A stretch of 64,000 bases of DNA, taken from positions 1,696,001-1,760,000 of the forward strand of contig CAVYGN010000002.1 in the NCBI GenBank assembly GCA_963768055.1, read 5' to 3'. The DNA comes from an uncultured Spirochaetota bacterium. GTDB lineage: Bacteria > Spirochaetota > Brevinematia > Brevinematales > JAOACQ01. This document shows, piece after piece, positions 182-28,381 of this stretch (position 1 is its first letter; every line of letters begins with the position of its first letter). The translations under genes and the position numbers were made by a program. The notes under the pieces were generated by a model. It saw only the letters and a list, made by a program, of their open reading frames with translations, was not told the DNA's origin and ran no database searches.

Positions 182-201
182 TTTGTTTAGGCCTAAACAA
201 A
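182..201. promoter_or_regulatory. perfect 20-bp palindrome, candidate operator
   Basis: TTTGTTTAGG|CCTAAACAAA, about 75 bp upstream of the -35 of the duplicated promoter. Confidence 0.35.
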
Positions 202-230
202 TTTAATTCGGTATAAATTCCCATCTTTAA

Positions 231-322
231 AGGCAAAAAAGTACTAGAGAGCTAAAAAAAGGTACTGGAGTACTATTGACTCTCTTTGATCATATTTTAT
301 ATAATTTATGCCATTAAAAAAT
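231..322 (+). promoter_or_regulatory. duplicated promoter block, copy A (sigma70-like)
   Basis: TTGACT 276-281, 18-bp spacer, TATAAT 300-305; upstream A-tract-GTAC direct repeats; 85/92 identical to 13774-13865. Confidence 0.7.
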
Positions 323-755
323 TATGAACTGTCAATCTAAGGATAAATTTATAAGAAAAATGAGGTAAGACGCTTTTGAATATGTAAAAATATAATTGTA
401 AAGTGGAAAAGTGAAAAATTAAAAGAGACTATTTAAATCACATTTGCTCTTTAATTCCATTCAAAAAGTTAGTTTTATTAGTCGGGTATTATTTTTCAAA
501 ATTTCTGGTTTGAGTGCGTCATGGTTCTTAATATTTTACGTTAAGCGAATAGGTAAAATAAGAATATGATGATAGTTTATGTATCAAGAAAAGAAAGTGT
601 AATAATAATTTATTGATATTAACGGAGTTGAAAAAAATAGTTGTCAATAATGGATTTGACAATAAAAATATTTTATTATAGTGCTAAGTCATATTTAGTT
701 ATTTGTCGAATATAATAACAATAAAATTTGAGAAAAATATTTAATGGAGTTTGAT

Positions 756-1415
756 ATGAAAATCAGAGGATTGATTGCGTTGTCAGTATTGGTATTATTT
801 TCGTGCAGCGGGCAGAAAATCGGCCCTGAAGAAGACAAAAAAGAAACCTTCCTTTTCAATAAAGCAATCATATTTTATCTCAGGAGAGATTTCAATTCTG
901 CTGAAAAAGGATTCTTGGAAATAGTGCAGAAATACCCATCTTACACCCCGGCATACATAATGCTTGGAAAATCATATTTTTTCATGAACAGGTTTGGAGA
1001 AGCCGAAAAATATTTTAAGCAGTCCATAGATAAATCTCCTAACGTAGATTCATACATCTGGCTTTCCAAGATAGCGATTGCGAATACGAATATGAACCAG
1101 TGCCTTGAGTATCTTAATAAAGCACTGCAACTCGACATGTCAAGTCCGCTCACTCATTATGAACTGGGGAAATATTATAGAATGGCTGGACAATATGATA
1201 AAGCGATATATAACCTTAATTATGCCATTTCATATGAGGATATTTATCCTGAAATGAAAAGCGAGCTGGCTTCACTTTATATGGATCTTGGCGCAAAAGA
1301 TAAAGCCGATAAGCTTTACGGTGAAATACTTAAAAGTTCTGATGTTTCTCCGATGGTAAGATCAAATGTAATAGAAAAAATGGATAAACAGGATAAGTCG
1401 AGGAAGACTAAATGA
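756..1415 (+). CDS. TPR-repeat lipoprotein
   Basis: Lipobox LFSC; several TPR motifs (AYIMLGKSYF, HYELGKYY); GGAG RBS before ATG 756 (ORF track starts at 744). Confidence 0.8.
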   Translation: MKIRGLIALSVLVLFSCSGQKIGPEEDKKETFLFNKAIIFYLRRDFNSAEKGFLEIVQKYPSYTPAYIMLGKSYFFMNRFGEAEKYFKQSIDKSPNVDSYIWLSKIAIANTNMNQCLEYLNKALQLDMSSPLTHYELGKYYRMAGQYDKAIYNLNYAISYEDIYPEMKSELASLYMDLGAKDKADKLYGEILKSSDVSPMVRSNVIEKMDKQDKSRKTK

Positions 1416-1876
1416 AAAAAGGAATTTTATTTGTATTTACGGCTTTTGTTATTTCATTTATCTTCTTTTCCTGCGGTATTGACACTTATAGATATTCATA
1501 TATAAGGCCCTCAGAAAAAAAATTGAATTTAAAAACTTATTCGATTAATAGCGTGGAAGTATTCAATGCTGAATCCTTATTTTTAGACAAAAATGTTGTT
1601 TCCAATACAATAAGCCAGGTTTTCGATATTGTAATGGCGAATAATGGATTCAGCTCGGTCAAGGACGGGGATATTTCCGTGGATATCAAGTTATTTGTTG
1701 AAGAAAATGATGTGATCAATAACAAGCAAACTTTATCCCTCTTTTTGACTATTAATGATAAAAATTCTCCACTTGCCCAATTCATTCTAGCCTCGAAAAG
1801 CAAAGATCTTATCCTCGATAAATCCATGCTGATCAGGGAAATTAACAGCGTGGCCGATCAAATCAAACTTTTATAA
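1412..1876 (+). CDS. hypothetical lipoprotein
   Basis: Signal peptide with FFSC lipobox; start overlaps the upstream stop. Confidence 0.7.
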   Translation: MKKGILFVFTAFVISFIFFSCGIDTYRYSYIRPSEKKLNLKTYSINSVEVFNAESLFLDKNVVSNTISQVFDIVMANNGFSSVKDGDISVDIKLFVEENDVINNKQTLSLFLTINDKNSPLAQFILASKSKDLILDKSMLIREINSVADQIKLL

Positions 1877-1888
1877 CCTGAACGGTTT

Positions 1889-3292
1889 ATGACAAGCGTG
1901 AAAATTAAGGCGATTATCGCTGCACTTATTTTCTCAACAGTTTATTCTGCAGCCGCGGCCGAGCCGTTAACCCTGCAGGAGTGTGTCAGCGAAGGCCTGA
2001 AAAATAACAAGGATATCTGCTATCTTAACGAAGAATCCTCGCTTCAAATATTGGCATTGGATGAACAATACAGAAAATTTTATCCTCAGGCAAGCCTGTC
2101 TTATGCGGAAACGGACCAGGTTAATATGAATTCTCCGGATTACAGGCTGAGGAATCTTTCGGTATCGGTATCACAGCTTATATATGACGGCAATAAGCTG
2201 GGGACTGAAATAGAAATTGAAAAGAACAATATCAGTATAAGCTTGCTGGAAAACAGCCAGAAAAGGATAGATTTTATTTTCCAGATTGTAAGCGGTTATC
2301 TTTCAATTTTAAAACAGCAAGAAAAAATCAACATCAAAAAACAACTTATTGAAACCCAGGAAAAAGAACTCAATATATCAAAGAAGAAAAATGAAGTTGG
2401 TGAGGCGACCAAACTGGATGTCCTTGAATGGCAAATTGAATGTAACCAATCTACAGTCGACGAACTGCAACTGGAAAACGATCTTGTTTTTGGAAAAATG
2501 AGCCTTATGAAGCTTTTAGGAATTGATATTGGAAATTCTTTTGAAGCGAGAGAAAAATTAGAGATAGACGTTGCTGCTTCATTCATTGATTATATAGAAG
2601 ACAGTGTTATCTCAGAAGCGCTTGAAAATTCCATCGATTTAAAAAAAATCCAAATTTCAATTATAAAAGCTAAGGAAACTTCGGTTCTTCACAATCTTTT
2701 GCTTCCCGATATCACATTGAATTTTTCTTACACAACAGATCCGAATTATTTATTTCATCCGGATGCAAGTTCATGGACAGCAGGGATTAATTTTAGCATA
2801 CCATTTTTTTTCGATGTACTTAATTTTGGTAATTCTTATGGCGGAAATATGAACGGAAGTCAAAAAAGTCAGGATCCTCAAATATCTTCGACTGTTTACC
2901 AGGATCCAAGCTTTACCAGAAAATTAAAAGAGGATGCATTTTCTTTCGACCAGCTTTCAAGTCAATATCATGACAAGATCGAAGAGATTAAACTTGATAC
3001 AAAGAAAAAATTAAGCGATTTCAAATTTCAAAAAGAAAAGATAGAAATGCTTGATGAGAAAATCAAGCTGGCTGAAGGTAAAAATACTATTTTATATCAC
3101 CAGGTACAAGTTGGTGAAGCATTACTTTCGGATTATATCAATTCATTAAACACTCTAAGTGAAATGAAAATGGAAAGAGTTGAAAGTCTTTATGATTATA
3201 CGACTTTAATGATTGAAATTTATAAAATCCGGGGAAAACTATCGGAAGATATCGTCAAATCATTATATAAAGATTTTCTTAAAGAGGTCTAA
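1889..3292 (+). CDS. TolC family outer-membrane channel
   Basis: Signal peptide; LTLQECV..GLKNN start; two OEP repeats (YPQASLS..SQLIYDG; LPDITL..W.AGINFSIP; GEAT.LDVL). Confidence 0.85.
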   Translation: MTSVKIKAIIAALIFSTVYSAAAAEPLTLQECVSEGLKNNKDICYLNEESSLQILALDEQYRKFYPQASLSYAETDQVNMNSPDYRLRNLSVSVSQLIYDGNKLGTEIEIEKNNISISLLENSQKRIDFIFQIVSGYLSILKQQEKINIKKQLIETQEKELNISKKKNEVGEATKLDVLEWQIECNQSTVDELQLENDLVFGKMSLMKLLGIDIGNSFEAREKLEIDVAASFIDYIEDSVISEALENSIDLKKIQISIIKAKETSVLHNLLLPDITLNFSYTTDPNYLFHPDASSWTAGINFSIPFFFDVLNFGNSYGGNMNGSQKSQDPQISSTVYQDPSFTRKLKEDAFSFDQLSSQYHDKIEEIKLDTKKKLSDFKFQKEKIEMLDEKIKLAEGKNTILYHQVQVGEALLSDYINSLNTLSEMKMERVESLYDYTTLMIEIYKIRGKLSEDIVKSLYKDFLKEV

Positions 3293-3293
3293 A

Positions 3294-4805
3294 ATGAAAA
3301 AACGTCCTGATAATAAATTGCAGAAAATAATTGCCAATTCAAGGGATTTTGTAACAAAAATTCTCAAATTTTTCAGTACCGGATTAAAACGTCGCATTGG
3401 ATTAGGGCTTGTAGTACTGCTCCTGATAATGGTTGTTGTTTCCATATTCACTTTCAAACCGGTATTCCCGAACTTAAGCCAGGAAAAGGATCAGAAAACA
3501 AATGATATTGCTGTTATGCCTGAAATCAAGGTTTCCCGGATAGAGAAAAGGGGAATTACGGACGAAGTGAACACTTACGGAACAGTTTCTTATTACCAAA
3601 AGGTTAATGTAGTATCTAAAGTGGAAGAAATCGCGGATAAGGTTAATGTCAATATCGGAGATTATGTAAACAAGGACCAGGTTTTGGCAGTAATGAAGAA
3701 TGAATATATAAAATTGGGCGTCGAATTAGCTAAGGAAGACGTGAGAGGCAAGGAAGCATCTTTCGAGTTATCGCTCGCAAAATACAGCAATGCTCTGCTG
3801 GGTGTCGAAAAAAATATTGGGTCCCTTGATAGACTTAGGATAGAAGAGAAACAAAAGAAACTTGAAATTGCAAATGCAGCCAGGATCCTTTCGAATAAAG
3901 ATGAGCTTCTTAGCGTAGAGGGCGTTACAAAGGAACAGTACAAAGATGCGGAAAGCAAGTACGATATTGCCATGCTTGAGCTTGACTCCATATTGAAAGA
4001 GATACAGGTCTCTGAAATCGGTTACAGGGATTCCGATATTAAAAACGCCGGAGAAAATGTGCCTGCTGATAAGGATCAGAGACTTGAAATTTTGAAGAAA
4101 ATTAATACAAAGGTAGAAAGCGCTGAAGTCGATATAGCCAAATCAGAAATAGAAAGATCCCGTCTTCAGCTTCAAACATCCGAATTAAATTTCGATGAAA
4201 CTATTATCAAATCTCCGAATAACGGCATAATAGCAATGCGTTACATCGAACCGGGTGAGAAAGCTGAAAAGGACAAACCCATTTTTACGGTAATTGATCT
4301 CGAAAGTTTATATATAGAATTGCCGGTCCCTGAAACCGAACTGCCGACAATAAAGCAGGACCAGGTTGTAAATATTAAAATTGATGCATATCCTCAAATG
4401 ACCTTTAACGGGATTGTGGAAACAATATATCCCATAGTGGATGTGAAAACAAGAACTGCAACTATAAGGTGTAGAATAAAAAACCAGAGACTTACAAGAA
4501 ACAGATATTTATTAACACCCGGAATGTTTGTTCGCGCAAATATTGTGACATCATCAAGAAAAGACGCTCTGACAATCCCTTTCGACGGTATGGCTGAAAA
4601 GGACAACGCAAGGATAAAAGTTTTCATAATCAAAAGGAATTCAACAGACACAAATACCGGTGTTGCTGTCGAAAAATGGGTGCCGTATTCTAAAATAGCT
4701 GATACCTATATTGAGATCCTGCAAGATCTGGATGAAGGCGATTTAATAGCTGTATCAGGGCTTGATTTTCTGGAAACAGGGCTGAGAGTTAAAATAAAGG
4801 AATAA
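3294..4805 (+). CDS. RND periplasmic adaptor (MFP) with extended coiled-coil hairpin
   Basis: N-terminal TM; lipoyl halves (V..GDYVNKDQVLA; IIKSPNNGII); beta-barrel motifs IYPIVDVKTRT and LTPGMFVRA; probable start 3294 (ORF track 3213). Confidence 0.85.
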   Translation: MKKRPDNKLQKIIANSRDFVTKILKFFSTGLKRRIGLGLVVLLLIMVVVSIFTFKPVFPNLSQEKDQKTNDIAVMPEIKVSRIEKRGITDEVNTYGTVSYYQKVNVVSKVEEIADKVNVNIGDYVNKDQVLAVMKNEYIKLGVELAKEDVRGKEASFELSLAKYSNALLGVEKNIGSLDRLRIEEKQKKLEIANAARILSNKDELLSVEGVTKEQYKDAESKYDIAMLELDSILKEIQVSEIGYRDSDIKNAGENVPADKDQRLEILKKINTKVESAEVDIAKSEIERSRLQLQTSELNFDETIIKSPNNGIIAMRYIEPGEKAEKDKPIFTVIDLESLYIELPVPETELPTIKQDQVVNIKIDAYPQMTFNGIVETIYPIVDVKTRTATIRCRIKNQRLTRNRYLLTPGMFVRANIVTSSRKDALTIPFDGMAEKDNARIKVFIIKRNSTDTNTGVAVEKWVPYSKIADTYIEILQDLDEGDLIAVSGLDFLETGLRVKIKE

Positions 4806-4816
4806 TAGGCGGATGT

Positions 4817-6262
4817 ATGAAAAATAAAATAATTATTCCGGCATTATTTGCATTATTCTTATTTGGATTAATAGAATGTTGCAGTTTATTTACCTCTCCG
4901 ACTGTTGTTTCCGTATCTCCCGGTAATGACCAGGAAGTGGGAACGAATTTCAGCATAACAATAGTATTTTCCAAATCAATGCATAAAGACACGGTTCAGA
5001 ACGCTTTTGCACTTTATTGTCTGGGATCTTCAGGAAATTCATCCTCGCCGGGAGCGTTAATCGAAGGAAGTTTTTCATGGGATAGCGATACAACATTGGT
5101 ATTCAGCCCATTTCAGGACCAGCTGGTTTACCCTTCCCAATATTCAATACAGATAGGGAATACGGCAGCCGATTCAGACGGCAACTCATTGGGCAATACA
5201 TATTATTCCAGATTTAAAATTATGGGAAATGCAATTTATCCAACTATTGTTGCAACATATCCTACAAACGGTGCCATTAATGTTCGCATACAAACAAATA
5301 TTACAATTCAGTTCTCGATGCCGATGGATCAGGGAAGTACGATCAGCGCATTTTCTTTAAACCCTTCTATTGCGGGAAACCTGTCATTAAAGTCCAATAT
5401 ATTGCTGTTTCAGCCATCAACCCCATTGAGCAACGGTTGCTATTATAATGTAAATGTAGCAAACACCGCCCAGGGAACCAATGGCGTTAAACTTCAAAAT
5501 TCCTACGTCTTTTATTTCCTTGCCGGCAATGGCCTGACTTTACCGGCAGTTACCGGTATCTATACAAACTTAAACAGCGCACCGCTTACAAATTACCAGT
5601 CAGGCATTGAAAAAACAAATACAAATTTCTTTATTTTATTCAATATACCGATGGACCGGGATTCTGTATACAATAACTTGAGCATTACCCCGTCAGCCAC
5701 ATATTATATTAACTGGATATCCGGCAATACCGCCGCTTTATACTTTACAACTCCACTGATCCCTTCAACAAATTATACTATATCCCTTTCTGCTGGAACC
5801 AAGAGTACATCAGGTTCCCTTCTCCAGAACAATTTCTTATTCAATTTTTACACAGACGGCCTGAATTCGACATTGCCTTTTGTTAATGATATCGTCGCGG
5901 AAACAACCGGAGGATTCGTTGATATGACTAATACAAATATTATATACTTAATACCTATTACTGCAAATACTCTTTGCATAGATGTTTCTTTCTCAGGCCC
6001 GGCAAACATAAACCTGCTTTCTCTTTATACGAATTCATCAATAACGTTTCTTTACGGTAGTGGAGATATATCGCAATCAGGGAAAATTTACACTATCAAT
6101 ATGACCGGCCCGAACAAATTCACATATACGATTACTTCGCTTTGTTTGAGTAATTATTATAAATTTTCTATGACTGGAGGAGCGAATGGAATACAGGATG
6201 TTCTGCAGAATCCTTTATCGGGTTCTTGGAATATTTATTTCTCCATTACTAATACTAATTAG
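4817..6262 (+). CDS. Ig-like (Big_5-type) repeat lipoprotein
   Basis: Signal peptide with Cys; repeated P.VV...P...I.I.FS..MD units; Asn/Thr/Ser-rich. Confidence 0.75.
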   Translation: MKNKIIIPALFALFLFGLIECCSLFTSPTVVSVSPGNDQEVGTNFSITIVFSKSMHKDTVQNAFALYCLGSSGNSSSPGALIEGSFSWDSDTTLVFSPFQDQLVYPSQYSIQIGNTAADSDGNSLGNTYYSRFKIMGNAIYPTIVATYPTNGAINVRIQTNITIQFSMPMDQGSTISAFSLNPSIAGNLSLKSNILLFQPSTPLSNGCYYNVNVANTAQGTNGVKLQNSYVFYFLAGNGLTLPAVTGIYTNLNSAPLTNYQSGIEKTNTNFFILFNIPMDRDSVYNNLSITPSATYYINWISGNTAALYFTTPLIPSTNYTISLSAGTKSTSGSLLQNNFLFNFYTDGLNSTLPFVNDIVAETTGGFVDMTNTNIIYLIPITANTLCIDVSFSGPANINLLSLYTNSSITFLYGSGDISQSGKIYTINMTGPNKFTYTITSLCLSNYYKFSMTGGANGIQDVLQNPLSGSWNIYFSITNTN

Positions 6263-7670
6263 TTTTTTACTTTTCAATTCCTGTTCTTTTTTAGATTTCG
6301 GCCAGCCTGTAATTTCATCTGTAAGTCCTTCAGACAGCCAATCCTTAGCACAAACAAATAATTTCAGTCATGTAGAAATAGTTTTCAGCAAGAAAATGAA
6401 TGAAGGTACAGTTCAAAATGCTTTTTCATTTAAGTATGTAACAGTCGATCCTTATGAAGAATCAAATATCCCGGGAAATTTTCAGTGGAACCAGGACGGT
6501 TCCGATATGTCATTTTATCCTCAGAATTCCTGCAATTTCGGTAAATATAAAATCAGTCTTCTCCCGACAGCTAAAGACGGCGATGGAAATGATATCCTAT
6601 ACGGCACCAATACAACATTTAATATAGGAAATCAGGGGAAATATCCCATAATAGTCTCTACCTACCCGCTTAATAATGCGGCAATTCTTTCGGGTTCAAA
6701 TCTTATCATTACAGTTTCATTTTCAGAATCAATAAATACGGCATACATGTCAAGCATGTTCAGCGTAAGCCCGTCTCTTAATTACCAGATAACGGCAGTT
6801 TCGAATAATACCGTTTTTGAACTTCTCCCCCTGTCGGTTTATCAAAATGGCCAGTATACACTTTCATTTAATACAAATAGCATTATCGACCTTTCCGGCA
6901 ACATGCTCCGTCCGACGCCTAATTTATTTTTTACCATCGGGACAAATTTTAATCCCCCGCGATTGCTCGGGATTTATACCAACCCGGATGCTGTCACCGG
7001 GCCCCTGACCCTGACGAACGGCTTGAACAATATCGATAAAAATAACAATCTTTATTTTTCATTTAATAAGAGCCTCGCAGTCAATTTGAATAATATACCT
7101 ATAAATTTCAGTCCGCAGGTCAGCGGAACCTGGGCTACCAACTCAAGCGCAAATGTCCTGTCGTTTACTCCCTCTTCATACTGGAACATAGGAACCGCCT
7201 ACACTGTTACAGTTAACAGCGGGTTCAAAGATATTTTCGGGAATGTATCTCAAAACACATATCAATCTTACCTTGAAATATCAAATTCGTTTATCTTTTT
7301 AACAAATATTATTTATTCCGACTCGGGTAGCGATACGGTTAATTGGAATTCTTCAGCCCTGAATTACGGTCCTTTTAAACCAGGTAATATAACAATCTAC
7401 CTTTATTTCAGCACCTCGCTTCAGCCGGTATCCGTTTTGCCGAATATCGGGATAAATACTTTTAACAGTATAAATAACTCCATTTCAATAACCACAATAG
7501 CTTTCATGACGAATAACTCTCCGAATGACTCGATATGCGTGACTTTGATGAATCCTTCAAATTATATCCTCTACTATCTTTCAGTCAACGGAGGAACAGG
7601 CGGTCTGAGGGACATGAATCAGAACTGGTTATCCAGCAATATTAATATATTTTTCAATTTAACAAATTAG
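6186..7670 (+). CDS. Ig-like (Big_5-type) repeat lipoprotein, paralog of the upstream gene
   Basis: FNSC lipobox; IVFSKKMNEGTVQNAF matches upstream IVFSKSMHKDTVQNAF; similar C-terminus GG.GG..D..QN.L. Confidence 0.75.
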   Translation: MEYRMFCRILYRVLGIFISPLLILISFLLFNSCSFLDFGQPVISSVSPSDSQSLAQTNNFSHVEIVFSKKMNEGTVQNAFSFKYVTVDPYEESNIPGNFQWNQDGSDMSFYPQNSCNFGKYKISLLPTAKDGDGNDILYGTNTTFNIGNQGKYPIIVSTYPLNNAAILSGSNLIITVSFSESINTAYMSSMFSVSPSLNYQITAVSNNTVFELLPLSVYQNGQYTLSFNTNSIIDLSGNMLRPTPNLFFTIGTNFNPPRLLGIYTNPDAVTGPLTLTNGLNNIDKNNNLYFSFNKSLAVNLNNIPINFSPQVSGTWATNSSANVLSFTPSSYWNIGTAYTVTVNSGFKDIFGNVSQNTYQSYLEISNSFIFLTNIIYSDSGSDTVNWNSSALNYGPFKPGNITIYLYFSTSLQPVSVLPNIGINTFNSINNSISITTIAFMTNNSPNDSICVTLMNPSNYILYYLSVNGGTGGLRDMNQNWLSSNINIFFNLTN

Positions 7671-7696
7671 GCCTGTAAAGGAATAGACTCTCGTAT

Positions 7697-13700: not shown

Positions 13701-13749
13701 TGCCGAAAATACCTATAAATCTTTAATTCCAAAACCAAAACAAATTTAA
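10738..13749 (+). CDS. RND efflux permease, divergent subunit 2
   Basis: 1003 aa; ITIPIENAVS, SRINGKERVSL, W.PFAITVVSGL; ATGA overlap with subunit 1. Confidence 0.85.
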   Translation: MMWWTKFHLKKPISSILLYSIIIMLGTFCIPQLKFTVSGEVYSPVISIKTEYFGMDSKYIEKNITIPIENAVSSIKGIKNISSVSEDGQSIIILTMNPSRPIKIATLEIKSAVDTVRDKFPEDVQEPVISHYDPSQTPVMILSFYSDSIPLKEVRRTVEEKVKPSVQKVDGVVECIVTGGEQSEIAVFVNTGPLYNSGLQLRDISRGIQQNNISSYLGDINRNDLSMPVFSEGKYESYYSIDKIAVMESATNESVFQQLGKIATVENYHKRIDNISRINGKERVSLYIQKQSDGNILKICSGIRDVVKGFDFKSISSEIDFDKSEEISEALNNLIFSILLGIGLLFIIITVFIGGYERGLAAVIPLPVSIAVTLLIANIFKIELNSIIMSGIALGCGLLVSDGIIIVEFLSKTNPKNMNSHILRNIKLLFPPLTAALFTTICVFIPIISSSPEIRSLYTGFSIIITIMLIVSLFLSTGIVPVSYRLAVPGIGNADGKRTNVKAALIKFEYFYIKLLKAFSKHKKFFFGLTIFLTLFSITAVFLRGKSLSSSDVIKEVYAYIEPAAGTSIEATDDLAKQAEDIFIKQEEIKKVITKVEKAHSEIILKLKREWREKELEKQIASWKNALSAVNAFIYFTYGESDNNNSEINIMFIGDDIASIKEISKQAARKIFTLPYFSEVLLRYKDDSPVYILTPDLNKIQISGLSLKEISDEARTYLYGIISSKLNPENQGMMDIRVASMISRDNKVLMDDFLNIVIRNGEGGLIPIRELFSVTKATTSSKIYRYNKRRNFSITARLKAGINLSTGINAIKTCLDPFQMPEGYYWQFDEKYEALSKNTNSMLIAVIAAIYLTFVTLVICYEGFRKAFMTIPVILLSFIGIAPALSILGINLSTPVYIGIILLSGTTVKNSVLLLSNIKNHENSVQIFHKCRKSLNSICLTTLATIIGLIPLIFTGGNGQYIWKPFAITVVSGLISSTVLCLIIVPLLAENTYKSLIPKPKQI

Positions 13750-13773
13750 TTAGGTAGGAATTAAAATATTTTA

Positions 13774-13865
13774 AGGCAAAAAAGTACTCAAGAGCTAAAA
13801 AAAGGTACCCGAGTACTATTGACTATCTGTGATCATATTTTATATAATTTACGCCATTAAAAAAT
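13774..13865 (+). promoter_or_regulatory. duplicated promoter block, copy B
   Basis: TTGACT 13819-13824, 18 bp, TATAAT 13843-13848; 85/92 identical to 231-322; a second candidate promoter TTGACA-17-TACGAT lies at 13930-13958. Confidence 0.7.
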
Positions 13866-14026
13866 CATTTTAATGGTGAATTTAGTAAGAAAGCTGAGGT
13901 AAGATACTTCTGAATGTTTGAATGCAAGCTTGACAAATTATTTTATTTCTTGTACGATTTTGTTAAAAATATAACAATTTAAAATATACCTAGAAATAAT
14001 TATAATTATCCGGTCTCGAGGTATTT

Positions 14027-20000: not shown

Positions 20001-21814
20001 CCGGCCTCGACTGGAACAATATGACCCTGAACCCCAGCACATGGAATATGAAGGCCGGTTCCACGATCAATATGAACTGGGGAAACATACTTAACAATTC
20101 CCTGGTAGCTGGAGCCTCCGGCTTCGCTTCGGGGCTTGCGGGGTCTTTGCTCGGCGGACAGTACAACGCCGATATGGGAGGAATGGACTATAACGGACTT
20201 ATCGGGGGTGATGCTTACAATAATTTCGCAAATGTAATAGGATCGTTCGCAGGACAGGGCGCAAACTACGAACTGAACGGAAGCTTCAACATAGACCTCG
20301 GCGCGGGTATCGGCACAAGCTATGTTAATGGCAAAGGCTTCGTGCGCAATGACGGGACATCGGGAGTAAGCCTCATAAGCTGCCTGCAGGGATTTTCCGA
20401 CTTATCGAATTCATCGAACCTGCCGGCCTTGCCTGTAAATAACAATCAGGACGCAAGCACGACGCCGGAACTCCCGCAAGCCATATTGCCTAAGGATCCA
20501 TCCGACTATATTCCGGAAAGCGATATCGTCAATCCGAATGTTCCGGACAATTCATATAGCGGAGCGAATAATGCGGCCAATCCAAATCCGAATGCGTTTA
20601 CTCCTGCAACAGTAGCTTATAATGAAATAGGGCAGCAAGTTCCACTTACTGATACACAGAGTCCTGTAGTTCCCCAGACAGTAAACCCTTATGACCATAT
20701 TTCAGACGGGAATAATTCCGGTCCGATTTTACCATATCAGCAAGTAGCAGAGCAGGCGTATCTCAATCAAAGCGATGCGTACAAGACCCAGATTTCAGAC
20801 CTTCAGAATAACCTTGGCATAGTTACGAGTGCCGGTATCATCAATACAAGTTCGGCAGTGAGCGATCTGAAGAGCGATATTCACGTAACAGATAATGCAA
20901 TGCAGCAGAATTATTCGTCATATCTCGGCAATGCCGGGATTGATGTTTCAAGATTCACAAAAGATGCTAATGGAAATATAACGAGCAACATATCTAATAA
21001 TTCCAGTTTTGTCAGCCAGGTATATCAGGACCAGGTGGATCACTATAACCGTGTTATGGATGATGCGAAGGATAATGCGGTAGTGAATGGCATAAATAAC
21101 ACATATAATGCAATGCTTTCGGCAAACAATAACGCGAATATTGTACAGAATGTTGGTTTAGGAAATGCAGGAAATATTACTGATGTTATAAACTATCAAA
21201 ACGATATCAGAAGCAATAATATTTTAAATATGAACGGCAGCAATAATGGAAACATTGTCAGCGACAGCCTGCAAAACAAAGGAAATTATTTTATGGTCGG
21301 AGAACAGGGATTGGGTTTTGGAACGCCTGCAGGCAACTATGGCGATTCTTATAGCGACCGTATCAGTGTTTTCAAAATGGATGACGCCGGTAATATTGAC
21401 TTGAAAGAATTCAACCAGTCCAATCTGGAATCGACAAACGATAAATATGATAGTAAAACCAACACTTATGATCCGACTCAGCAGCAATATTCTGACACTG
21501 CCTCTGGTATATATAATCTTACTACATATCAATGGACGGGGGAAGGACATGATTCCCCAGGAATGCAATTCTGCTTCTTAATAAATGATAAAGGGCCTGT
21601 CTCTACCAGTGATGGAATGAATAACGTTGCCTATCCATGGCAAGGTCCTATTATATATGATTCGAGAGTGCATACAGGTGGAGTTTATTGGAATGGCAGT
21701 GAAGCATGTAGCACAATAAATCCTAACGATTATTATCAGTTGATGAGTATGTTTCAAAATTCAAATGGATCATATCAATATGGAAGTCAAGGCACATATT
21801 ATCTATTAAGATAA
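14027..21814 (+). CDS. giant secreted protein, putative polymorphic toxin with C-terminal L,D-transpeptidase-like domain
   Basis: 2595 aa; GAGG RBS; N-terminal signal/TM; Trp-periodic helical repeats; Gly-rich hydrophobic region; C-terminal VHTGG-x5-SEACSTI; reminiscent of the Leptospira TIGR04388-type large proteins (not verified). Confidence 0.7.
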   Translation: MKIKGLLNEKWGILLSLYLAIIFSFIPGILRPQEKFNSFDNKEMQSELIYGDNIKNDADWQNYSKGVEQKLEGDWETSALNELMQQLGLTEHEAMSNSDFITAKTNWEAQASNVIQQMYGSWLAQNKWNYAVNGSAIRQFIVQYVWEDQNDTSNITANILSMQTNVDAEWSNYLICYQAGLSDYLNYLETNTQNISSTAMENYLDAIQATAKAQMAAASDIGSEFIALEEGQYIKYMASFLAYQQFISNNSLITNGLQLSNNMVSYISNAADAASNVNSPLTIAENVIQSMDSNEAEIAGLLAMPTNFTDSPAVGISEWKSMVEQDYTAGISEWDAAIANLSNSMIIWENNAENGYTNGLTEWENSYFMLISAEMDFQSNVTADLTNSEAVWGSNISAQYDSLNLMIGTMTNLTARNIDNFNSYESGLMNVLVNGSYALNELNKSLDWISNTLSVDEISNNYYSNLYASDMAKSNLDESELSSSNTLLSLFNNCQSILEPLMVLTGTNRYFQGGEGGVEAVPAYSASTNIDGYTLTYSGDSYNNSYTVNGNEIYYTANGFSFENSEPVMIIKSYINSIQSDLNSIQNAIQTNKWYYRHYSSEIGSLNNVLGECGTNLGAVIGNAAADLNSELYSGDPGAGVLANALSNTADIYLMNSAEMDYASQQDQVNYLKQNLGIAQAVMDYAVSNSGGGDILSASNTYEAAVSNYDVSTNELEAEQAAADSADVAMTNYMENINAAQTNMIADQSNCGIAQSNYNAFVTIQTNLDYFTSKEYSNLINSNENAQNILSNDSIAYYSCLAYYTGLVKDYYNALEQESFTNSLAMSNYITVREDLGILEWALMPGMLGIDNTSNAYVSVANYINPVSDYSNALQLYDTAENGLARTSNLIIAEETLPANMQSEVNNFIGDYSDYSKLMNFAQSFMNQEQTVYQSLEGAKSTYDRDATNSFGLSADDIASDPVYADVVKKMSAGAYTPADIITMLNNEIGVTGANSDISQDELNITRTTILDDFYKYVNTPEESLYELAFGIRSYDYFTNIAGANLTAFDNLVHTTFLSGRVDNSLLNPGAYVDVQGYIDGLTALLSTPGLDPNMSNVINNLANVLAPEGSYFQLSRGYIPAITNVNITPANTNWPQEAPQPIITPAVTNITISRLGGYYADDTFYNVNTNNGREKISDLFKGFIETNNSVTYSWATVNPNNYFDYNGYYGNWSYYNSVLLGIEKNEETTIVMPLMSTMTNNLAGVMSDWNDYSNKNAGFAQYTVSGMGHFVNSSGGIDVTAGNNGFLKSFKNSLSRVSNFSIAQSWLANTGVFNAEEAYIADNLSLGNAGTNDIGRILEVFENAFKLYINSEQSNIQNDPAFTTNNDMKLFITTMLSGAYSNAVFRASDEAQPSFVDAAENAGSLAPEAFDIAFQQQETLQVDKWAYILTNMQDQANSEAEMWVNIYSAGTEQWNGVINQYTNAMSDWQSSYLQAWNNGNQEWNDQMNGLTGDKAAWMNEAINAVSNGSSDYILDQLMQSIDQRTSQFLSGGLPEDVASAVKNEALDLENELMPKTSEEYLSFFNNAVSQSRETDVKFVLDGIAGYTGNDNETLAQFNNDMTAFKNSQLAIEAIKMRDQFVTTIQQYVDQMNNTLASDDQNERSSEFYPMISAKGWTLDGSDWVKRGVIVHSTMLGGNQLEDFSFADYQSFTNRLNFINYAPSNVISEINGEQTEYNLLLAMEESDIQGDMSNTMDAFDKHIGSSYTYTSKPDIYSDGTYDSQGELYRTSWATTYYGYLQTEGLSESEKPFWDQNLAPGIDISFYSLNEIGLAIALNFIPGMGTVASAAILAGMAMTHDIVDAAAELGTVNQVSNSQLGIDLLKDTISGVTTMATAGIGSAALGVVGSAVLSTGVQDLSGLAEEGLHVNSSGDIDWSMTSSQWGSWGMSSLGDLAGSVAGAGLGSAFGGFAQDATGFMGDDLSSAFGNGIQNFTTSFFTNTFSTLGSNLGAGLDWNNMTLNPSTWNMKAGSTINMNWGNILNNSLVAGASGFASGLAGSLLGGQYNADMGGMDYNGLIGGDAYNNFANVIGSFAGQGANYELNGSFNIDLGAGIGTSYVNGKGFVRNDGTSGVSLISCLQGFSDLSNSSNLPALPVNNNQDASTTPELPQAILPKDPSDYIPESDIVNPNVPDNSYSGANNAANPNPNAFTPATVAYNEIGQQVPLTDTQSPVVPQTVNPYDHISDGNNSGPILPYQQVAEQAYLNQSDAYKTQISDLQNNLGIVTSAGIINTSSAVSDLKSDIHVTDNAMQQNYSSYLGNAGIDVSRFTKDANGNITSNISNNSSFVSQVYQDQVDHYNRVMDDAKDNAVVNGINNTYNAMLSANNNANIVQNVGLGNAGNITDVINYQNDIRSNNILNMNGSNNGNIVSDSLQNKGNYFMVGEQGLGFGTPAGNYGDSYSDRISVFKMDDAGNIDLKEFNQSNLESTNDKYDSKTNTYDPTQQQYSDTASGIYNLTTYQWTGEGHDSPGMQFCFLINDKGPVSTSDGMNNVAYPWQGPIIYDSRVHTGGVYWNGSEACSTINPNDYYQLMSMFQNSNGSYQYGSQGTYYLLR
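20273..20518 (+). repeat. 246-bp direct repeat, copy 1 (pre-toxin homology block)
   Basis: Identical to 23570-23815 except for 2 substitutions. Confidence 0.95.
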
Positions 21815-22896
21815 TGGATTGTAATATGAAAAATATGGTAATTATAATTATTTTCACAATAATAAGTTTTAAACTTTATGCTGCTTCAATAGAAATTGCT
21901 GGAGACGATATTTTTCACCATGATATTTTTACAAAAACTATTATTGATCCTGATAATGGTGATCCCATTGAATATAATATATTTAATTTCTTCGATAATA
22001 ATCAGAAAACTGCAGTAGTTATAAATGCTAAATTTAGGCAAAATGATGATATATTTAAATATCCATTTTTTAGAATAAGCTTAAAAAAACAATATAATAT
22101 TGATAAATTAGTGTTCTATAATGGTTTCCAAATAAATGATGATTTATATAATAAAAATAGCAGGGTAAAAGAGATTCAAATTACATTTTTTCTTGAAAAT
22201 AAAATTTTTGTAAATGAAGGGGAAATTTATAATGATGTAATCATTGATGAAAAAGGGAGAAAGCAAAAAATTGTAATTGAATGGACAAATATTATAACGA
22301 CGAACTGTATTTTGCTTGATACAAAAGGAAAACAAATAATTGAATTTCCTGAAGTTAACGCAAATAATTTAAAAATCGATGTATTAACCTACTATTCAGG
22401 CACTCAGTATGATGATATCTGTATAAGCAAGCTTGAGTTCTGGTACAGGGGCGAGAAGTACCAAGTGACTAATCTTAAGGAAGCAAAGAAAGAATATGTT
22501 AAATTGTATATTGCACATGTTCTTAATTCATTGGAACCGGGTGTATTTTTGCATGATATGGAAGAAAATAATTATAACAGACTTATCAAGATAGCAGGGT
22601 GGAAATATGAACAATCTGAAAGCAGGCAGGTTGGAATATTTTTTGAAAAATCTGGAGAAATAAAAATCCATCGATTTTTGCTATCATCCGTCAAAGATCG
22701 TGATTTATTCCCAACTAAAATCATCGGAAAATGGAAATTCGATAATGAAGGAAGACTATTCATTATGATAGGTAATGGGCAATTTAAATTGTCGCAAGGG
22801 AAAAGTATTTTTACAAGTTCATCTACGGAAAAAGGGCCGTATTTTGTTGGAACTGATCTTGAATTTGAAGGTATTATGGAACCATCGAGACCTTAG
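21814..22896 (+). CDS. putative immunity protein 1 (exported; discoidin/NADase-type glycan-binding-like domain)
   Basis: TAATG stop/start overlap with the giant gene; signal peptide; YNGFQ..Y.KNSR.K and YDDICISKLEFW motifs; very AT-rich. Confidence 0.65.
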   Translation: MDCNMKNMVIIIIFTIISFKLYAASIEIAGDDIFHHDIFTKTIIDPDNGDPIEYNIFNFFDNNQKTAVVINAKFRQNDDIFKYPFFRISLKKQYNIDKLVFYNGFQINDDLYNKNSRVKEIQITFFLENKIFVNEGEIYNDVIIDEKGRKQKIVIEWTNIITTNCILLDTKGKQIIEFPEVNANNLKIDVLTYYSGTQYDDICISKLEFWYRGEKYQVTNLKEAKKEYVKLYIAHVLNSLEPGVFLHDMEENNYNRLIKIAGWKYEQSESRQVGIFFEKSGEIKIHRFLLSSVKDRDLFPTKIIGKWKFDNEGRLFIMIGNGQFKLSQGKSIFTSSSTEKGPYFVGTDLEFEGIMEPSRP

Positions 22897-22926
22897 ATAC
22901 ATATAAATCAACAAAGAGGCTAACTA

Positions 22927-23229
22927 ATGGACAACAAAAACAAGCCATCCGGCGTTCCCGTTAAATTCCAGGACACCGCGAATAAAGTAGCATACTCCAA
23001 CTTCGCTCTGATCAACAACTCGTCGGAGGAGTTCCTGCTGGACTTCGGCAATATCACCCCCGGCAAGGAGGGAGTGGAGGTATTCAGCAGGATAGCGCTC
23101 TCCCCCCGCAACGCGAAGCTGTTCCTGAGCGGGCTTATGGAGCGTGTGAAGAAGTTTGAAGAACAGTTTGGCCCGATCAAGCCGCCAGAGGCGGTGGAGG
23201 TAGAGGCGATGAACGGGAGAGATAAGTGA
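22927..23229 (+). CDS. DUF3467 family protein, copy 1
   Basis: AYSNFALINNSSEEFLLDFG..SRIALSP.NAK.....L...V.KFE..FG.I signature. Confidence 0.8.
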   Translation: MDNKNKPSGVPVKFQDTANKVAYSNFALINNSSEEFLLDFGNITPGKEGVEVFSRIALSPRNAKLFLSGLMERVKKFEEQFGPIKPPEAVEVEAMNGRDK

Positions 23230-23550
23230 CGATTAACGATTGTCGAATGACGATTGAAACCAGGTAATAGTAAAGATTATGATTATAGAACAAAGGTTAG
23301 CGAACAACCCCCGCCTGCGAGGGAAGCGCCCGGGGGTTGATCCTTGTAAAGCAGGCCGTCCGCGAAAAACGGCGGTAAGCCCTGCCCCTTATCGATATCT
23401 GTTTTTTTATAAAAGAATTCGTTCGCTTAAATTAAAAACCTTAAGGGGCGGGACAGCCGTTTTGAGCGGTTGCAGTTCATGCTTCCCGAGCCCAGCGGGG
23501 GCGGTTTCTTTCGGTTCGCTTTCTTTGCCGGCCAAAGAAAGCGAACAGGG
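23227..23550. repeat. structured non-coding repeat element, copy 1
   Basis: Heptamer repeats, nested inverted repeats and terminal 14-bp hairpin GTTCGCTTTCTTTG/CAAAGAAAGCGAAC; second copy at 27901-28248. Confidence 0.8.
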
Positions 23551-23569
23551 GGCCAGGCATATCTCCGCC

Positions 23570-23815
23570 CTGAACGGAAGCTTCAACATAGACCTCGGCG
23601 CGGGTATCGGCACAAGCTATGTTAATGGCAAAGGCTTCGTGCGCAATGACGGGACATCGGGAGTAAGCCTCAGAAGCTGCCTGCAGGGATTTTCCGATTT
23701 ATCGAATTCATCGAACCTGCCGGCCTTGCCTGTAAATAACAATCAGGACGCAAGCACGACGCCGGAACTCCCGCAAGCCATATTGCCTAAGGATCCATCC
23801 GACTATATTCCGGAA
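23570..23815 (+). repeat. 246-bp direct repeat, copy 2
   Basis: Matches 20273-20518 with 2 mismatches. Confidence 0.95.
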
Positions 23816-25084
23816 GACGATGTTGTTAATACGAATCCTTCAAATAATACTTGGGCTGACCCTGGGCTTGCCGCTTCAAACGTAGTGAATAATGTGACCA
23901 ATCCGGCTCCGAATGTATTTAATCCTGCTAATGTGGCTTATAATGAAATAGGACAGCAAGTTCCACTTACTGATATGCAAAATTCTTCGTTATCGCAGAA
24001 AGTAGACCCGAATGATCATATTTCTATTGGCAGTGCCGCTCTTCAGGATTTGCTTTACAAAAATGGGGAATACAGCAATCAGCTCAAAACACTTCAGAAT
24101 GATATGAGTACTGTTCAGGGTGTTGGGTTAAATAATGCTAGTTCTATTGTTGGAGACCTCAAAAATGATTTTAAATCAACAGACAGCTTAATGCAACAGA
24201 ATTATACATCTTATCTGAGTGATAACAATATTAATGTATCAACATTCAAAGTCAATTCAGATGGCAGCGTGTCCAGCAATATATCGAATAATTCTTATGT
24301 CAACAATCAACTTTATCAGGAACAAAAAGATCATTACACTAATATCGCAAACGAAATGAATAATAGTTATCAAACTAATGAAATAAATAACACGATTAAT
24401 ACGCTTCAAAGTGTCGGGTTAAACAACTCGGCGGCACCGAGTATCGATCCGGCGATCTCAGATATGAAGGACCAGATAACTATAATAAATAACAGCTATA
24501 ATAAAAATATTCTTAGTAATGGTCTGAATAATAATAACAGATATGATTTTATAGGGGAAGAAGGACGCGGAAACTATCAGCAAACAGGTCCTGATTATTA
24601 CGGCGACAGAATTACTGTACTTCAGAAAGATGCGAGCGGTAATATCAATTTCGATGAGTTCAACAGATCCAACCTTGAATCGACTAATGATCCCTCATTA
24701 GACAGAAAAGACTATGATCCAGCAAAAGGCGGATTTCAATCAACTGCAGCTGGTATATATTCGCTTACAGCAAGCGGCGATACATCTAATCTTAACTCAC
24801 AAGATATACCATTAATATTTAGCGTAAATGACGGGCAAAACATACCGACAGAGGGAAATCAAAATAACGCATATAACTATAATACGCCTTACATGAACCA
24901 GATTCTTGTTCATGAAGGCGGCGACAACTATAACTGGAGCGCGGGATGCTCTACGATATATATTGATGATTACCCAGCATTAGCGAACTTATTTGGGAAT
25001 TATAATTCGCAGACAAAGAAATTTATACCTTATGCAGGAAGTTATTCGGCAATAGGAAGCGGTACATATTATCTTTACAGGTAA
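23570..25084 (+). pseudogene. orphan alternative C-terminus cassette of the giant protein
   Basis: Begins with the 246-bp repeat in the same reading frame; then a divergent but homologous CT with VHEGG-x5-SAGCSTI and terminal GTYYLYR; no signal peptide; the ORF-track start at 23279 lies inside the structured element. Confidence 0.75.
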
Positions 25085-25093
25085 AAGAAGGTT

Positions 25094-26053
25094 ATGAAAG
25101 TTAAAATTATGATAATTCTCAGTCTACTAATAATCTATTCATGTATAAATGCATCAAAAATTGAATTAGATGGAATAGAGAGGGGGAAACTTGGACTTAT
25201 TTATACAATATTTGGTGAAGATAATAGCCCCCTAAAATATAATGAATTTAATTTATTGGATAAGAATTTGAAAACAGCTTCTGCTATCAGCAAAAGTAAT
25301 TGTTCACCTGAAGATTCAATACCATGGTTCAATATATTTTTTAAAAAAGAATTCCCTGTTGATAAAATTGTAATCTATAATGGATTTCAATTGAATATGA
25401 CAGTTTATCAATTAAATGACAGACCCAATGAAGTAAAAATCGATTCACAAAATGAGAGTGATGATTCCACAAATTATTCATTTGTTACAAACATTCAACT
25501 ATTAGATATTACTAATAGTCAGGAACTTTTATTAAATAAAGAAATTAGAATAAAAAATTTTGGTATAGGTGTCCTTTCCACCTATCCAGGTACAAAGTAC
25601 GACGACATCTGTTTAAGCAAGCTTGAATTCTGGTACAAGGGCGAGAAGTATAATGTTGCAAATCTTGAAGAAGCCAAGAAAGAATATATTAAGACATACA
25701 TCCAGAGATGCCTTCATTGGATATTATCATATTATTATATAAACTCTATCAATCCTGAAGGGATGGATAAATTAGATAAACTTGCGGGAATAAAGAAAAC
25801 GGTAGAATTAGGATATGACACATGTATAAATTTTGAAAAGAGCGGAGATATCAAAGTGATACCGGCACTGGAAGATAATAAGGTAAGGGTACATGTCGGC
25901 AGCTGGAAATTCGACGATGAAGGAAGGCTATGGATTAAATTAGACAATGGCGACTGGAAGGTATCAAAAAGTTCCGAATCGAATGTTAATTTTGGCAAAA
26001 GACATTTTATCGGGACCGATCTCGATTGTGTTATTGCAGGTTGGGGTGGGTGA
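25094..26053 (+). CDS. putative immunity protein 2, paralog of 21814-22896
   Basis: Signal peptide; YNGFQ, YDDICLSKLEFWYKGEKY, G.WKFD.EGRL, F.GTDL shared with paralog; starts 10 bp after the orphan CT stop. Confidence 0.65.
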   Translation: MKVKIMIILSLLIIYSCINASKIELDGIERGKLGLIYTIFGEDNSPLKYNEFNLLDKNLKTASAISKSNCSPEDSIPWFNIFFKKEFPVDKIVIYNGFQLNMTVYQLNDRPNEVKIDSQNESDDSTNYSFVTNIQLLDITNSQELLLNKEIRIKNFGIGVLSTYPGTKYDDICLSKLEFWYKGEKYNVANLEEAKKEYIKTYIQRCLHWILSYYYINSINPEGMDKLDKLAGIKKTVELGYDTCINFEKSGDIKVIPALEDNKVRVHVGSWKFDDEGRLWIKLDNGDWKVSKSSESNVNFGKRHFIGTDLDCVIAGWGG

Positions 26054-26115
26054 TATTGATGATATTTAGAAAATTACTTTTATTAAAAAATAATAATCGA
26101 GCAAGAGGCTAACTA

Positions 26116-26478
26116 ATGGACAACAAAAACAACACCAAACCATCGGGCGTTCCTGTCAAATTCCAGGACACCGCCAATAAAGTAGCATACTCCAACTTTG
26201 CGCTGATCAACAATTCGTCCGAAGAGTTCCTGCTGGACTTCGGAACGATCACGCCCGGAAGGGAAGGGGTTGAGGTGTTTGGCAGGATAGCGCTTTCTCC
26301 CCGCAACGCGAAGCTGTTCCTCCAGGGTCTGGCTGAAAGAGTAAAAAAGTTTGAAGAACAATATGGCCCGATCAAGCCGCCGGAGGCGGTGGAGGTGCTT
26401 GTCCTGAATTCCCGCCAGAATTCAGGGCTTGCGCCTGTGGTGGAGGCGATTAACAAGGGAGAGCATCATCTAAAATAA
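26116..26478 (+). CDS. DUF3467 family protein, copy 2 (15-aa in-frame hairpin insertion)
   Basis: Near-identical to copy 1; extra LVLNSRQNSGLAPVV encoded by 26398-26442. Confidence 0.8.
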   Translation: MDNKNNTKPSGVPVKFQDTANKVAYSNFALINNSSEEFLLDFGTITPGREGVEVFGRIALSPRNAKLFLQGLAERVKKFEEQYGPIKPPEAVEVLVLNSRQNSGLAPVVEAINKGEHHLK

Positions 26479-26523
26479 ATTTAAAATAAGTCCAAAGAAA
26501 ATATAATTTATGGAGGTTTTTGC

Positions 26524-27543: not shown

Positions 27544-27758
27544 ATATCTATAAATAATTACATAGTCAATTTTAATACGCTATTTTATCTGGGAAATATG
27601 GGATAAGAGCCTTTTTTAATATCTACGCAACTGAGGAATTCGGTATCTAAAACTATTACGCGAGGAATTTTTCAATGAAAAAGGGGGGGGCAATCATGGC
27701 ATTTTTAGAATACAAAGGTAAGATGATTAATCTTGATGATGACTAAGAAAGTGGTGAT

Positions 27759-27903
27759 GCGGAACGGGCCTGTCCCTGATGTCGGCTCAGGGATGAGGAA
27801 GTATGAGGAGCAATTTGCCCCGATCAAGCCGTCCGAGGCGCTTGTCCCTGAGCATACTGCTCAGGGGGTGGAAGTTGAGGCGATAAACGGGAGAGATAAG
27901 TGA
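27759..27903 (+). pseudogene. 3' remnant of a third DUF3467 copy
   Basis: Encodes AER(V)RKYEEQFAPIKPSEA..VEVEAINGRDK*, interrupted by 25-nt and 27-nt hairpin insertions. Confidence 0.75.
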
Positions 27904-28248: not shown

Positions 28249-28381
28249 AAACGGCATCGAATGCGAATCTGTAGTAAAAGTCCAGCTAAGGGATTGTACC
28301 GGGCTGAAGAGCGAGGGTAATGATTGTATTTTTTAAGTAAAATAAGTTTGAAGAAAACATAATATTTATGGAGGTTTTTAT

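Follow-up and report, generated by a model that had tools for sequence, protein, structure and literature searches.

MafB-type polymorphic toxins, as set out in the sections of Zhang et al. 2012 (PMC3482391) devoted to them, combine a signal peptide with a lineage-specific N-terminal region, and their genes are accompanied by orphan cassettes and by an upstream lipoprotein gene. In the portion of the same source that covers Tox-LD-peptidase, this toxin domain is defined by a His, Ser and Cys signature, and the phyletic list given there omits spirochaetes. Rhs-fused L,D-peptidase effectors with periplasmic immunity have been documented for DUF2778/Tlde1, according to excerpts of two further reports (bioRxiv 10.1101/2020.02.18.954545; PMC9638812). 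Here we describe a locus in a 64-kb stretch of contig CAVYGN010000002.1 from an uncultured Spirochaetota bacterium (the whole stretch is hereafter called the window), in which a pump operon of eight genes precedes the gene for a very long protein of 2595 amino acids (aa), hereafter the giant protein. We consider it probable that the giant protein is a Sec-exported antibacterial toxin of the polymorphic type, built on a new scaffold, and that the pump is a co-regulated efflux system rather than its exporter.

Comparison with described toxin systems

The locus is closest in its logic to the MafB-type Sec-dependent polymorphic toxins and in its toxin chemistry to Tox-LD-peptidase and Tlde1. With MafB/MafA of Neisseria it shares a signal peptide joined to a lineage-restricted conserved N-terminal region, orphan C-terminal toxin–immunity cassettes downstream, one or more conserved lipoprotein genes upstream and, likewise, the lack of a known outer-membrane route. 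It differs in that the giant protein has no match to DUF1020 or MAFB-N, and in that the genes upstream encode a complete tripartite pump of the resistance-nodulation-division (RND) type rather than a single lipoprotein. The giant protein is also roughly five times the length of MafB.

Like CdiA, the giant protein is a very long, fibrous exoprotein with a putative C-terminal toxin and a conserved junction motif, followed downstream by candidate immunity and then by orphan modules. However, it has no two-partner secretion (TPS) domain, filamentous haemagglutinin (FHA) repeats or VENN motif, and the one portion of its scaffold for which a model was built (aa 31-470, at low confidence) looks helical instead of forming a beta-helix. 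No CdiB/TpsB is encoded among the 41 open reading frames (ORFs) of the window that we scanned. Unlike Rhs toxins and those belonging to a type VI secretion system (T6SS), the giant protein lacks a match to the RHS repeats or core, and no VgrG/PAAR is found in the window; unlike type I substrates it has an N-terminal hydrophobic signal, and no ABC ATPase is encoded among the window ORFs scanned. The absence of ABC ATPase, TpsB, VgrG/PAAR and Rhs genes from these ORFs is as the initial annotation had stated. Since each testable defining feature is absent, we do not regard the giant protein as a member of the CdiA, Rhs, MafB or type I secretion system (T1SS) groups. We place it instead among the Sec-dependent polymorphic toxins, an established kind, in which it would represent a new subfamily with a previously undescribed scaffold family.

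A divergent L,D-peptidase-like domain at the C-terminus

The C-terminal domain of the giant protein, which takes up its last ~200 residues, occurs in a second, orphan copy further downstream. We built a profile from these two copies and ran it with hmmsearch against 1.84 billion representative proteins, which returned 32 proteins at E <= 1e-3, 13 of them at E <= 1e-10 (identifiers beginning with P denote proteins from our searches). The resulting alignment holds 28 sequences; it excludes four fragments of the proteins of the window and of P0002, the repeat protein P0019, and the long proteins P0002 and P0014. Its hallmark is the motif [IL]H.GG..W..S.GC.T[IV], in which the His, Ser and Cys are present in every one of the 28 rows, and the spacing from His to Cys is 12 when read from the motif segments of both window copies. 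The last residue of the domain is no more than three positions from the protein C-terminus in 25 of the 28 rows. An Rhs core (TIGR03696 Rhs_assc_core, E 1e-17 to 1e-20) directly precedes the domain in 3 of 27 proteins scanned (P0009, P0010 and P0029). LysM, PG_binding_1 and YkuD (E 1.6e-4) were each found once in the scan of the 32 relatives, and in the other relatives the region before the domain has no known family. One further relative, P0032, was suspected of carrying a DUF4157 motif, but Pfam gave no match at E <= 0.5 and we dropped the suggestion. A tblastn search of the domain against plasmids gave no match.

Matches of the domain to curated families lie below the cut-offs. The orphan copy scores 14 bits for YkuD against a cut-off of 23.4, and two relatives have weak matches to Tlde1_dom (E 0.038 and 0.15). 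Among the relatives, P0029 comes to 22.7 bits for YkuD (PF03734, cut-off 23.4) and P0025 to 14.9 for Tlde1_dom (PF10908, cut-off 30.1). An AlphaFold2 (AF2) model of the domain, built on the alignment, has a mean per-residue confidence (pLDDT) of 84.2 and a predicted TM-score (pTM) of 0.83. When this model was compared with the PDB by Foldseek, 9 of the 10 top rows were L,D-transpeptidase or L,D-carboxypeptidase folds (Bd1075, Pgp2, LdtMt1, Csd6, DpaA and 4lpq).

We read the domain as a divergent toxin of the L,D-peptidase type, placed in that superfamily by its motif and by weak fold evidence rather than by a curated cut-off, because the His/Ser/Cys signature, the Rhs context and the presumed peptidoglycan target match those of Tox-LD-peptidase and Tlde1/Tae5. 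The likeness covers a domain of the thiol L,D-peptidase type in which His, Ser and Cys are conserved, a C-terminal place on toxin scaffolds that include Rhs, and, as predicted for the window, a periplasmic peptidoglycan target and an exported immunity protein. There are also differences: the window domains fall short of the YkuD and Tlde1_dom cut-offs, their family is small, with 32 detectable representatives, and the residue before the Gly-Cys pair is variable rather than His. The Tox-LD-peptidase immunity families Imm16 and Imm57 have no Pfam match in the window ORFs, and, in contrast to Tlde1/Tae5, no T6SS genes are seen in the window. The domain would thus add a small divergent branch to the L,D-peptidase toxin domains.

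Cassettes downstream of the giant gene

The initial annotation had described a toxin and its partner followed by an orphan C-terminal module with a partner of its own, and alignments of the modules, the partners and the DUF3467 genes confirm this layout. The last 513 residues of the giant protein can be aligned with those numbered 98-601 in the product of the ORF at 23279-25084. At the nucleotide level the two modules are 99% identical over 180 nt (20288-20467), which we call the handle, and 31-73% identical beyond it; their catalytic domains are 43% identical. Each module is followed by a gene for a protein with a NADase-type discoidin domain, of 360 aa after the giant gene and 319 aa after the orphan. 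These two proteins are 37% identical, and each begins with a signal or lipobox sequence. In the Atlas, proteins resembling the 360-aa one are commonest in Spirochaetota and Myxococcota, which by itself is no more than a hint of spirochaete origin. The third gene of each cassette encodes a DUF3467 protein, and the two copies are 87% identical. Searches of the PDB with the DUF3467 and 360-aa proteins (phmmer) gave nothing useful, and we found no relevant literature on DUF3467.

The orphan module has neither a start nor a promoter of its own, and terminator-like hairpins lie ahead of it. These belong to a GC-rich intergenic element of ~330 nt with a predicted folding energy of -118 kcal/mol (z = -2.7) and long-range helices, which matches no Rfam family. 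Its two copies are 90-95% identical and each stands after a DUF3467 sequence. The element is also the source of spurious N-termini in the 601-aa and 127-aa ORFs, the first 97 residues of the 601-aa ORF being read-through. The cassette system runs past position 26478, at which the initial annotation had ended it, as far as a junction remnant at 27733-28248.

The handle and the third gene are conserved, and the toxin and its exported neighbour have diverged in parallel; together this looks like a toxin–immunity cassette with an orphan spare. From this pattern we infer an immunity function for the 360-aa and 319-aa proteins, which would make them a candidate new immunity family founded on the NADase-type discoidin domain.

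The region of the cassettes holds two further lipoprotein genes, at 26524-27543 and 28382-28963, neither of which belongs to a known family. Their starts, comprising ribosome-binding site and signal peptide, are near-identical (26498-26543 versus 28356-28401, 85%). The 339-aa lipoprotein of this region consists of some eight repeat units that follow the pattern YNGTVYTAGQDSSGNACYWTGT.

A rare scaffold

The giant protein is acidic and rich in Asn and Ser (N 11.7%, S 10.4%, K+R 3.5%). One hydrophobic segment is found at its N-terminus and two more within aa 1813-1892, inside a Gly/Ala-rich stretch at aa ~1800-2080. Neither the whole sequence nor any of six pieces of it matched a Pfam or NCBIfam family. 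With a G+C content of 0.41-0.51 across 14001-22000, the giant gene exceeds both the pump operon and the orphan cassette, which lie at 0.32-0.40; the cause may be the amino-acid make-up of the protein or a foreign origin of the gene.

Two relatives came from a word-indexed search across 5.8 billion clusters: P0002, of 2482 aa, which is 39-41% identical to the giant protein from end to end, and P0003, of 1849 aa and on a 6.3-kb contig, which is 26% identical over the first ~440 residues. When the search was seeded with residues 1400-1900 of the giant protein, P0002 alone was found. The search with the C-terminal domain added P0014, a protein of 3515 aa that resembles the giant protein in the N-terminal region (27%), the central region of the hydrophobic segments (23%) and the C-terminal domain (30%). 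The family as detected therefore consists of the window protein and three other members. An AF2 model of the conserved N-terminal region (aa 31-470, from four sequences) is all-helical at low confidence (pLDDT 50.7, not good enough to search for similar folds), and a search of the ESM Atlas with aa 31-1800 gave no usable look-alike. The scaffold is thus extremely rare, ~2500-3500 residues long and, in the sole part modelled, helical, if at low confidence.

Kinship with the large TIGR04388 proteins of Leptospira, which the initial annotation had thought possible, is unsupported, because the giant protein and P0014 match no NCBIfam model at E <= 0.01, with the presence of TIGR04388 in release 20 unconfirmed. 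We found no literature on TIGR04388.

Proposed mode of action

Under the reading that we favour, the N-terminal signal or anchor would take the giant protein across the inner membrane, and ~1750 residues of acidic, Asn/Ser-rich sequence would form a stalk. The two conserved hydrophobic segments might insert into a membrane. Beyond the short conserved junction LNGSFNIDLG and a Pro-rich linker would lie the toxic module, a thiol L,D-peptidase-like domain that could cleave the stem peptides of peptidoglycan, or link them wrongly, in the periplasm of an adjacent cell, while the secreted 360-aa discoidin-domain protein would block the toxin in the periplasm of the producer. The promoterless second module and its 319-aa partner would serve as a spare cassette, and recombination at the 99%-identical handle could put it in place of the active end. 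The TolC/membrane fusion protein (MFP)/twin-RND operon, on this account, would be an ordinary lineage-specific efflux pump with lipoprotein accessories, co-regulated through a duplicated promoter/operator. Enzymatic activity, immunity, the use of the orphan in recombination and the independence of the pump are what we infer from the sequences and models described above.

Several observations count against this account. Next to the Cys of the motif, where 26 of 28 rows have Gly, the copy in the giant protein has Ala. Neither window domain reached a Pfam or NCBIfam cut-off, and the copy in the giant protein had no match at all at E <= 10. The Foldseek matches are weak, the best having an E of 0.01 (probability 0.99), none being at or below 1e-3, and the TM-scores lying at 0.3-0.4; a profile of the domain alignment gave chance matches only (E > 1) against PDB sequences. 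Those relatives that carry LysM or PG_binding_1 might be wall enzymes with a housekeeping role. No outer-membrane route out of the producer was identified for the giant protein, and the reading accordingly poses a puzzle, namely how a Sec-exported toxin of ~280 kDa leaves a diderm cell that has no recognisable dedicated secretion system. Finally, the promoter block, the lack of a terminator between the second permease gene and the giant gene, and co-occurrence on one contig, all described below, argue that the neighbourhood of the pump is not merely accidental.

The constancy of the C-terminal type also bears on the suggestion, made in the initial annotation, that this is a candidate polymorphic-toxin system. 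Much of that suggestion stands: there is a partner gene, and, among the features by which Zhang et al. 2012 recognise such toxins, the locus has a C-terminal domain that occurs on unrelated scaffolds and orphan cassettes downstream. Differing toxin types on one scaffold, in contrast, were not seen, since the window protein, P0002 and P0014, which are all the full-length members (thin sampling, n = 3), carry the same C-terminal family. What these three proteins display is only divergence within one toxin type.

That constancy is equally what would be expected if the giant protein were a lineage-specific fibre of the periplasm or envelope, with a C-terminal domain that remodels, or attaches to, the cell's own peptidoglycan, for example in the service of cell shape, and with downstream copies that are tandem paralogues. 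We regard this as unlikely. The best structural matches (Bd1075, Pgp2 and Csd6) are indeed L,D-carboxypeptidases that act in cell shape in curved or helical bacteria, and LysM or PG_binding_1 accompany the domain on some relatives as they do in housekeeping wall enzymes; yet three relatives carry it as the C-terminal domain of Rhs proteins, a known toxin context, and its position is terminal in nearly all rows of the alignment. No cleavage site is obvious in the N-terminal segment of the giant protein, which might anchor it in a membrane, as would suit a fibre. The downstream copy suits it poorly: it lacks a start and a promoter and lies behind terminator-like hairpins, its handle is 99% identical and then gives way to sharp divergence, and the secreted partner diverges in step with it.

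A promoter block shared with the pump operon

The initial annotation reported the same promoter block before the pump operon and before the giant gene. This is correct, although the block is 134 nt long rather than 92 bp. If a 10-nt indel is allowed, the alignment continues for ~60 bases more, to about 385 and 13918. A 34-nt core pattern of the block occurs exactly twice in the window and in none of 100 shuffles. The two copies hold the two best sigma-70-like sites of the + strand between 1 and 14100 (TTGACT-18-TATAAT, 11 of 12 matches), and the GTACT..AGTAC palindromes upstream of the -35/-10 elements look like an operator. No terminator-like site was found on the + strand between the gene for the second RND permease (RND2) and the giant gene.

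The leader of the pump operon (305-743) covers ~440 nt from the promoter block to the first start codon, and that of the giant gene ~180 nt. The former contains no convincing small ORF and no Rfam match, and the window as a whole gave nothing at gathering score against Rfam.

Adjacency on the same strand, the shared promoter/operator block and the uninterrupted passage from RND2 into the giant gene are the starting points for a second alternative, put forward in the initial annotation, in which the TolC/long MFP/twin-RND/lipoprotein operon is a dedicated machine that carries the Sec-exported giant toxin from the periplasm to the cell surface or keeps it fixed at that site. Its Big_5 and TPR lipoproteins might then act as MafA-like holders, or the outer membrane factor as a conduit. 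We think this quite unlikely, and it is similarly doubtful that the eight-gene operon is a co-evolved partner of the giant protein that holds its helical stalk at the envelope or enables it to cross the outer membrane. Both families are rare, the giant protein having the three other members described above and RND2 grouping with just seven other clusters (44-72% identity) before the matches drop to <=28%. P0037, the closest orthologue of RND2 (72%), and P0002, the closest orthologue of the giant protein, both report a longest contig of 602571 nt, and so their genes are probably on one contig in the single other genome that could be checked, which speaks for co-occurrence and not for adjacency; moreover, both families may simply belong to the same narrow lineage.

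Four lipoproteins within an RND operon are unusual, and no other secretion system was seen at the locus among the ORFs scanned; both permeases, however, score as ordinary ACR_tran efflux proteins. Precedent can be cited for a role of such neighbours, in that MafB/MafA pairs lineage-specific N-terminal domains with an upstream lipoprotein (PMC3482391, sections on these toxins), and for TolC-dependent export from the periplasm, in MacAB-TolC and enterotoxin II (PMC8277102, excerpts). In those same excerpts of PMC8277102, however, the polypeptide cargoes of tripartite pumps belong to the ABC-type MacAB only and are of ~10 kDa or less, far from the ~280 kDa of the giant protein. The same C-terminal domain is also found on Rhs scaffolds in other organisms, and thus needs no RND partner. 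We found nothing relevant in the literature that links a polymorphic toxin with RND efflux. Searches of genome contigs with an alignment of three giant proteins and with the first permease (RND1) gave 132 and 96 pattern matches, respectively, of which none was confirmed.

If the dedicated machine were real, it would be a route not described so far for contact-dependent toxin display, in a diderm without type V, type VI or type I secretion parts at the locus, and the duplicated promoter/operator would coordinate the machine with its cargo; the RND/TolC/lipoprotein operon is in this respect a concrete candidate for the exit route of the toxin. If the pump is unrelated to the toxin, as we favour, the shared promoter block still suggests a common regulator of efflux and interbacterial attack.

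Least probable of all, in our view, is that the giant protein is a toxin but the 360-aa protein a glycan-binding helper in targeting or translocation, with protection left to DUF3467 or to an unrecognised gene: the names NADase_transloc and NADase_discoid do refer to a glycan-binding translocation domain, look-alikes of ~300 aa form sizeable clusters by themselves and no cassette, not even the remnant, is without DUF3467, but DUF3467 has no signal peptide, whereas a wall-directed toxin calls for periplasmic protection, it is conserved at 87% across cassettes whose toxin domains are 43% identical and so cannot give specificity, and it is the 360-aa/319-aa pair that is exported and diverges as the toxins do.

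Features of the locus

Table 1. Features of the pump operon, the giant gene and the downstream cassettes (positions in the window)
Feature	Position	Strand	Evidence and remarks
Putative promoter/operator block, copy 1	192..325	+	Direct repeat, 87% identity; -35/-10 at 276-305; GTACT..AGTAC palindromes just upstream
TPR lipoprotein, 223 aa	744..1415	+	TPR_2 E 6.5e-21; lipobox LFSC
Small lipoprotein, 154 aa	1412..1876	+	Lipobox FFSC; no Pfam/NCBIfam family
TolC-like outer membrane factor, 467 aa, signal peptide	1889..3292	+	PF02321 OEP E 4.8e-38, 131 bits vs cut-off 22
Membrane-anchored periplasmic adaptor, ~503 aa from ATG 3294	3294..4805 (ORF opens 3213)	+	TIGR01730 RND_mfp 148.3 bits vs 94.9; HlyD_D23
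Big_5 (Ig-like) lipoprotein 1, 481 aa	4817..6262	+	PF13205 E 6.9e-35, 3 stretches; lipoprotein-like N-terminus
Big_5 (Ig-like) lipoprotein 2, 494 aa	6186..7670	+	PF13205 E 2.5e-21; lipoprotein-like N-terminus
RND permease 1, 1014 aa	7697..10741	+	ACR_tran E 1.4e-194
RND permease 2, 1003 aa	10738..13749	+	ACR_tran E 4.5e-143
Putative promoter/operator block, copy 2	13735..13868	+	Direct repeat, 87% identity; -35/-10 at 13819-13848
Gene for the giant protein (putative toxin), 2595 aa	14027..21814	+	ORF; hydrophobic signal/anchor aa 12-30; relatives P0002, P0014
Putative recombination handle	20266..20539, near-identical to 23563-23836	+	Repeat 96%; starts at motif LNGSFNIDLG
C-terminal L,D-peptidase-like domain (putative toxin)	21209..21811	+	32 relatives; His2549, Ser2558, Cys2561 invariant; AF2 and Foldseek
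Candidate cognate immunity/partner protein, 360 aa, signal peptide, NADase-type discoidin domain	21814..22896	+	NF047619 61 bits vs 38; PF25302
DUF3467 protein, copy 1, 100 aa, no signal peptide	22927..23229	+	PF11950 E 2.6e-16
Structured intergenic element, terminator-like hairpins	23230..23560; repeated ~27904-28248	+	Repeats, alignment, RNA fold
Orphan C-terminal module: handle, pre-C-terminal region, divergent L,D-peptidase-like domain	23563..25084 (601-aa ORF opens 23279)	+	Alignments; YkuD E 0.078
Partner of the orphan, 319 aa, NADase-type discoidin domain	25094..26053	+	Pfam, NCBIfam, N-terminus; lipobox IYSC
DUF3467 protein, copy 2, 120 aa	26116..26478	+	PF11950 E 3.3e-15
Third cassette-junction remnant: DUF3467 3' fragment and intergenic element copy	27733..28248	+	Repeats, alignment

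The pump operon extends from 744 to 13749, and the ORF list, the Pfam and NCBIfam matches and the N-termini agree with the initial annotation on its eight + strand genes, their order and the 2595-aa ORF that follows. A tripartite RND set, with an OEP-family outer membrane factor, an RND-type MFP and two permeases, is complete in this one operon, and the scores are those of ordinary efflux components. The TolC-like protein scores under the NCBIfam cut-offs for TolC. By blastp, the two Big_5 lipoproteins are 30% identical to each other and the two permeases only 24%. The top NCBIfam equivalogs of the permeases are MdtC and MdtB, far under cut-off (369 versus 1774), and we therefore do not regard them as MdtB/C orthologues.

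Each permease has a single Asp in transmembrane segment 4 (VDANIV in RND1, VSDGII in RND2), and the region of transmembrane segment 10 reads VVDNAIV in RND1 and TVKNSVL in RND2; these residues may be the counterparts of the proton-relay residues of AcrB. Like the MdtABC twin-RND efflux system, the operon combines an outer membrane factor, an MFP and two distinct RND permeases, but it differs from MdtABC by its four interleaved lipoprotein genes and by an MFP that is long and membrane-anchored. RND heterotrimers such as MdtBC are known (PMC8277102, in the excerpts that treat them). One protein matched by RND2 (24% identity), the 1487-aa RND homologue P0045, is fused to TPR domains, which hints that TPR partners, such as the product of the first gene of the operon, are pump accessories in some lineages.

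Away from the locus, the only other secretion-related match in the window is a 506-aa protein with a CsgG-like N-terminal domain (E 2.6e-17), encoded on the - strand at 57087-58607, 35 kb from the toxin gene.

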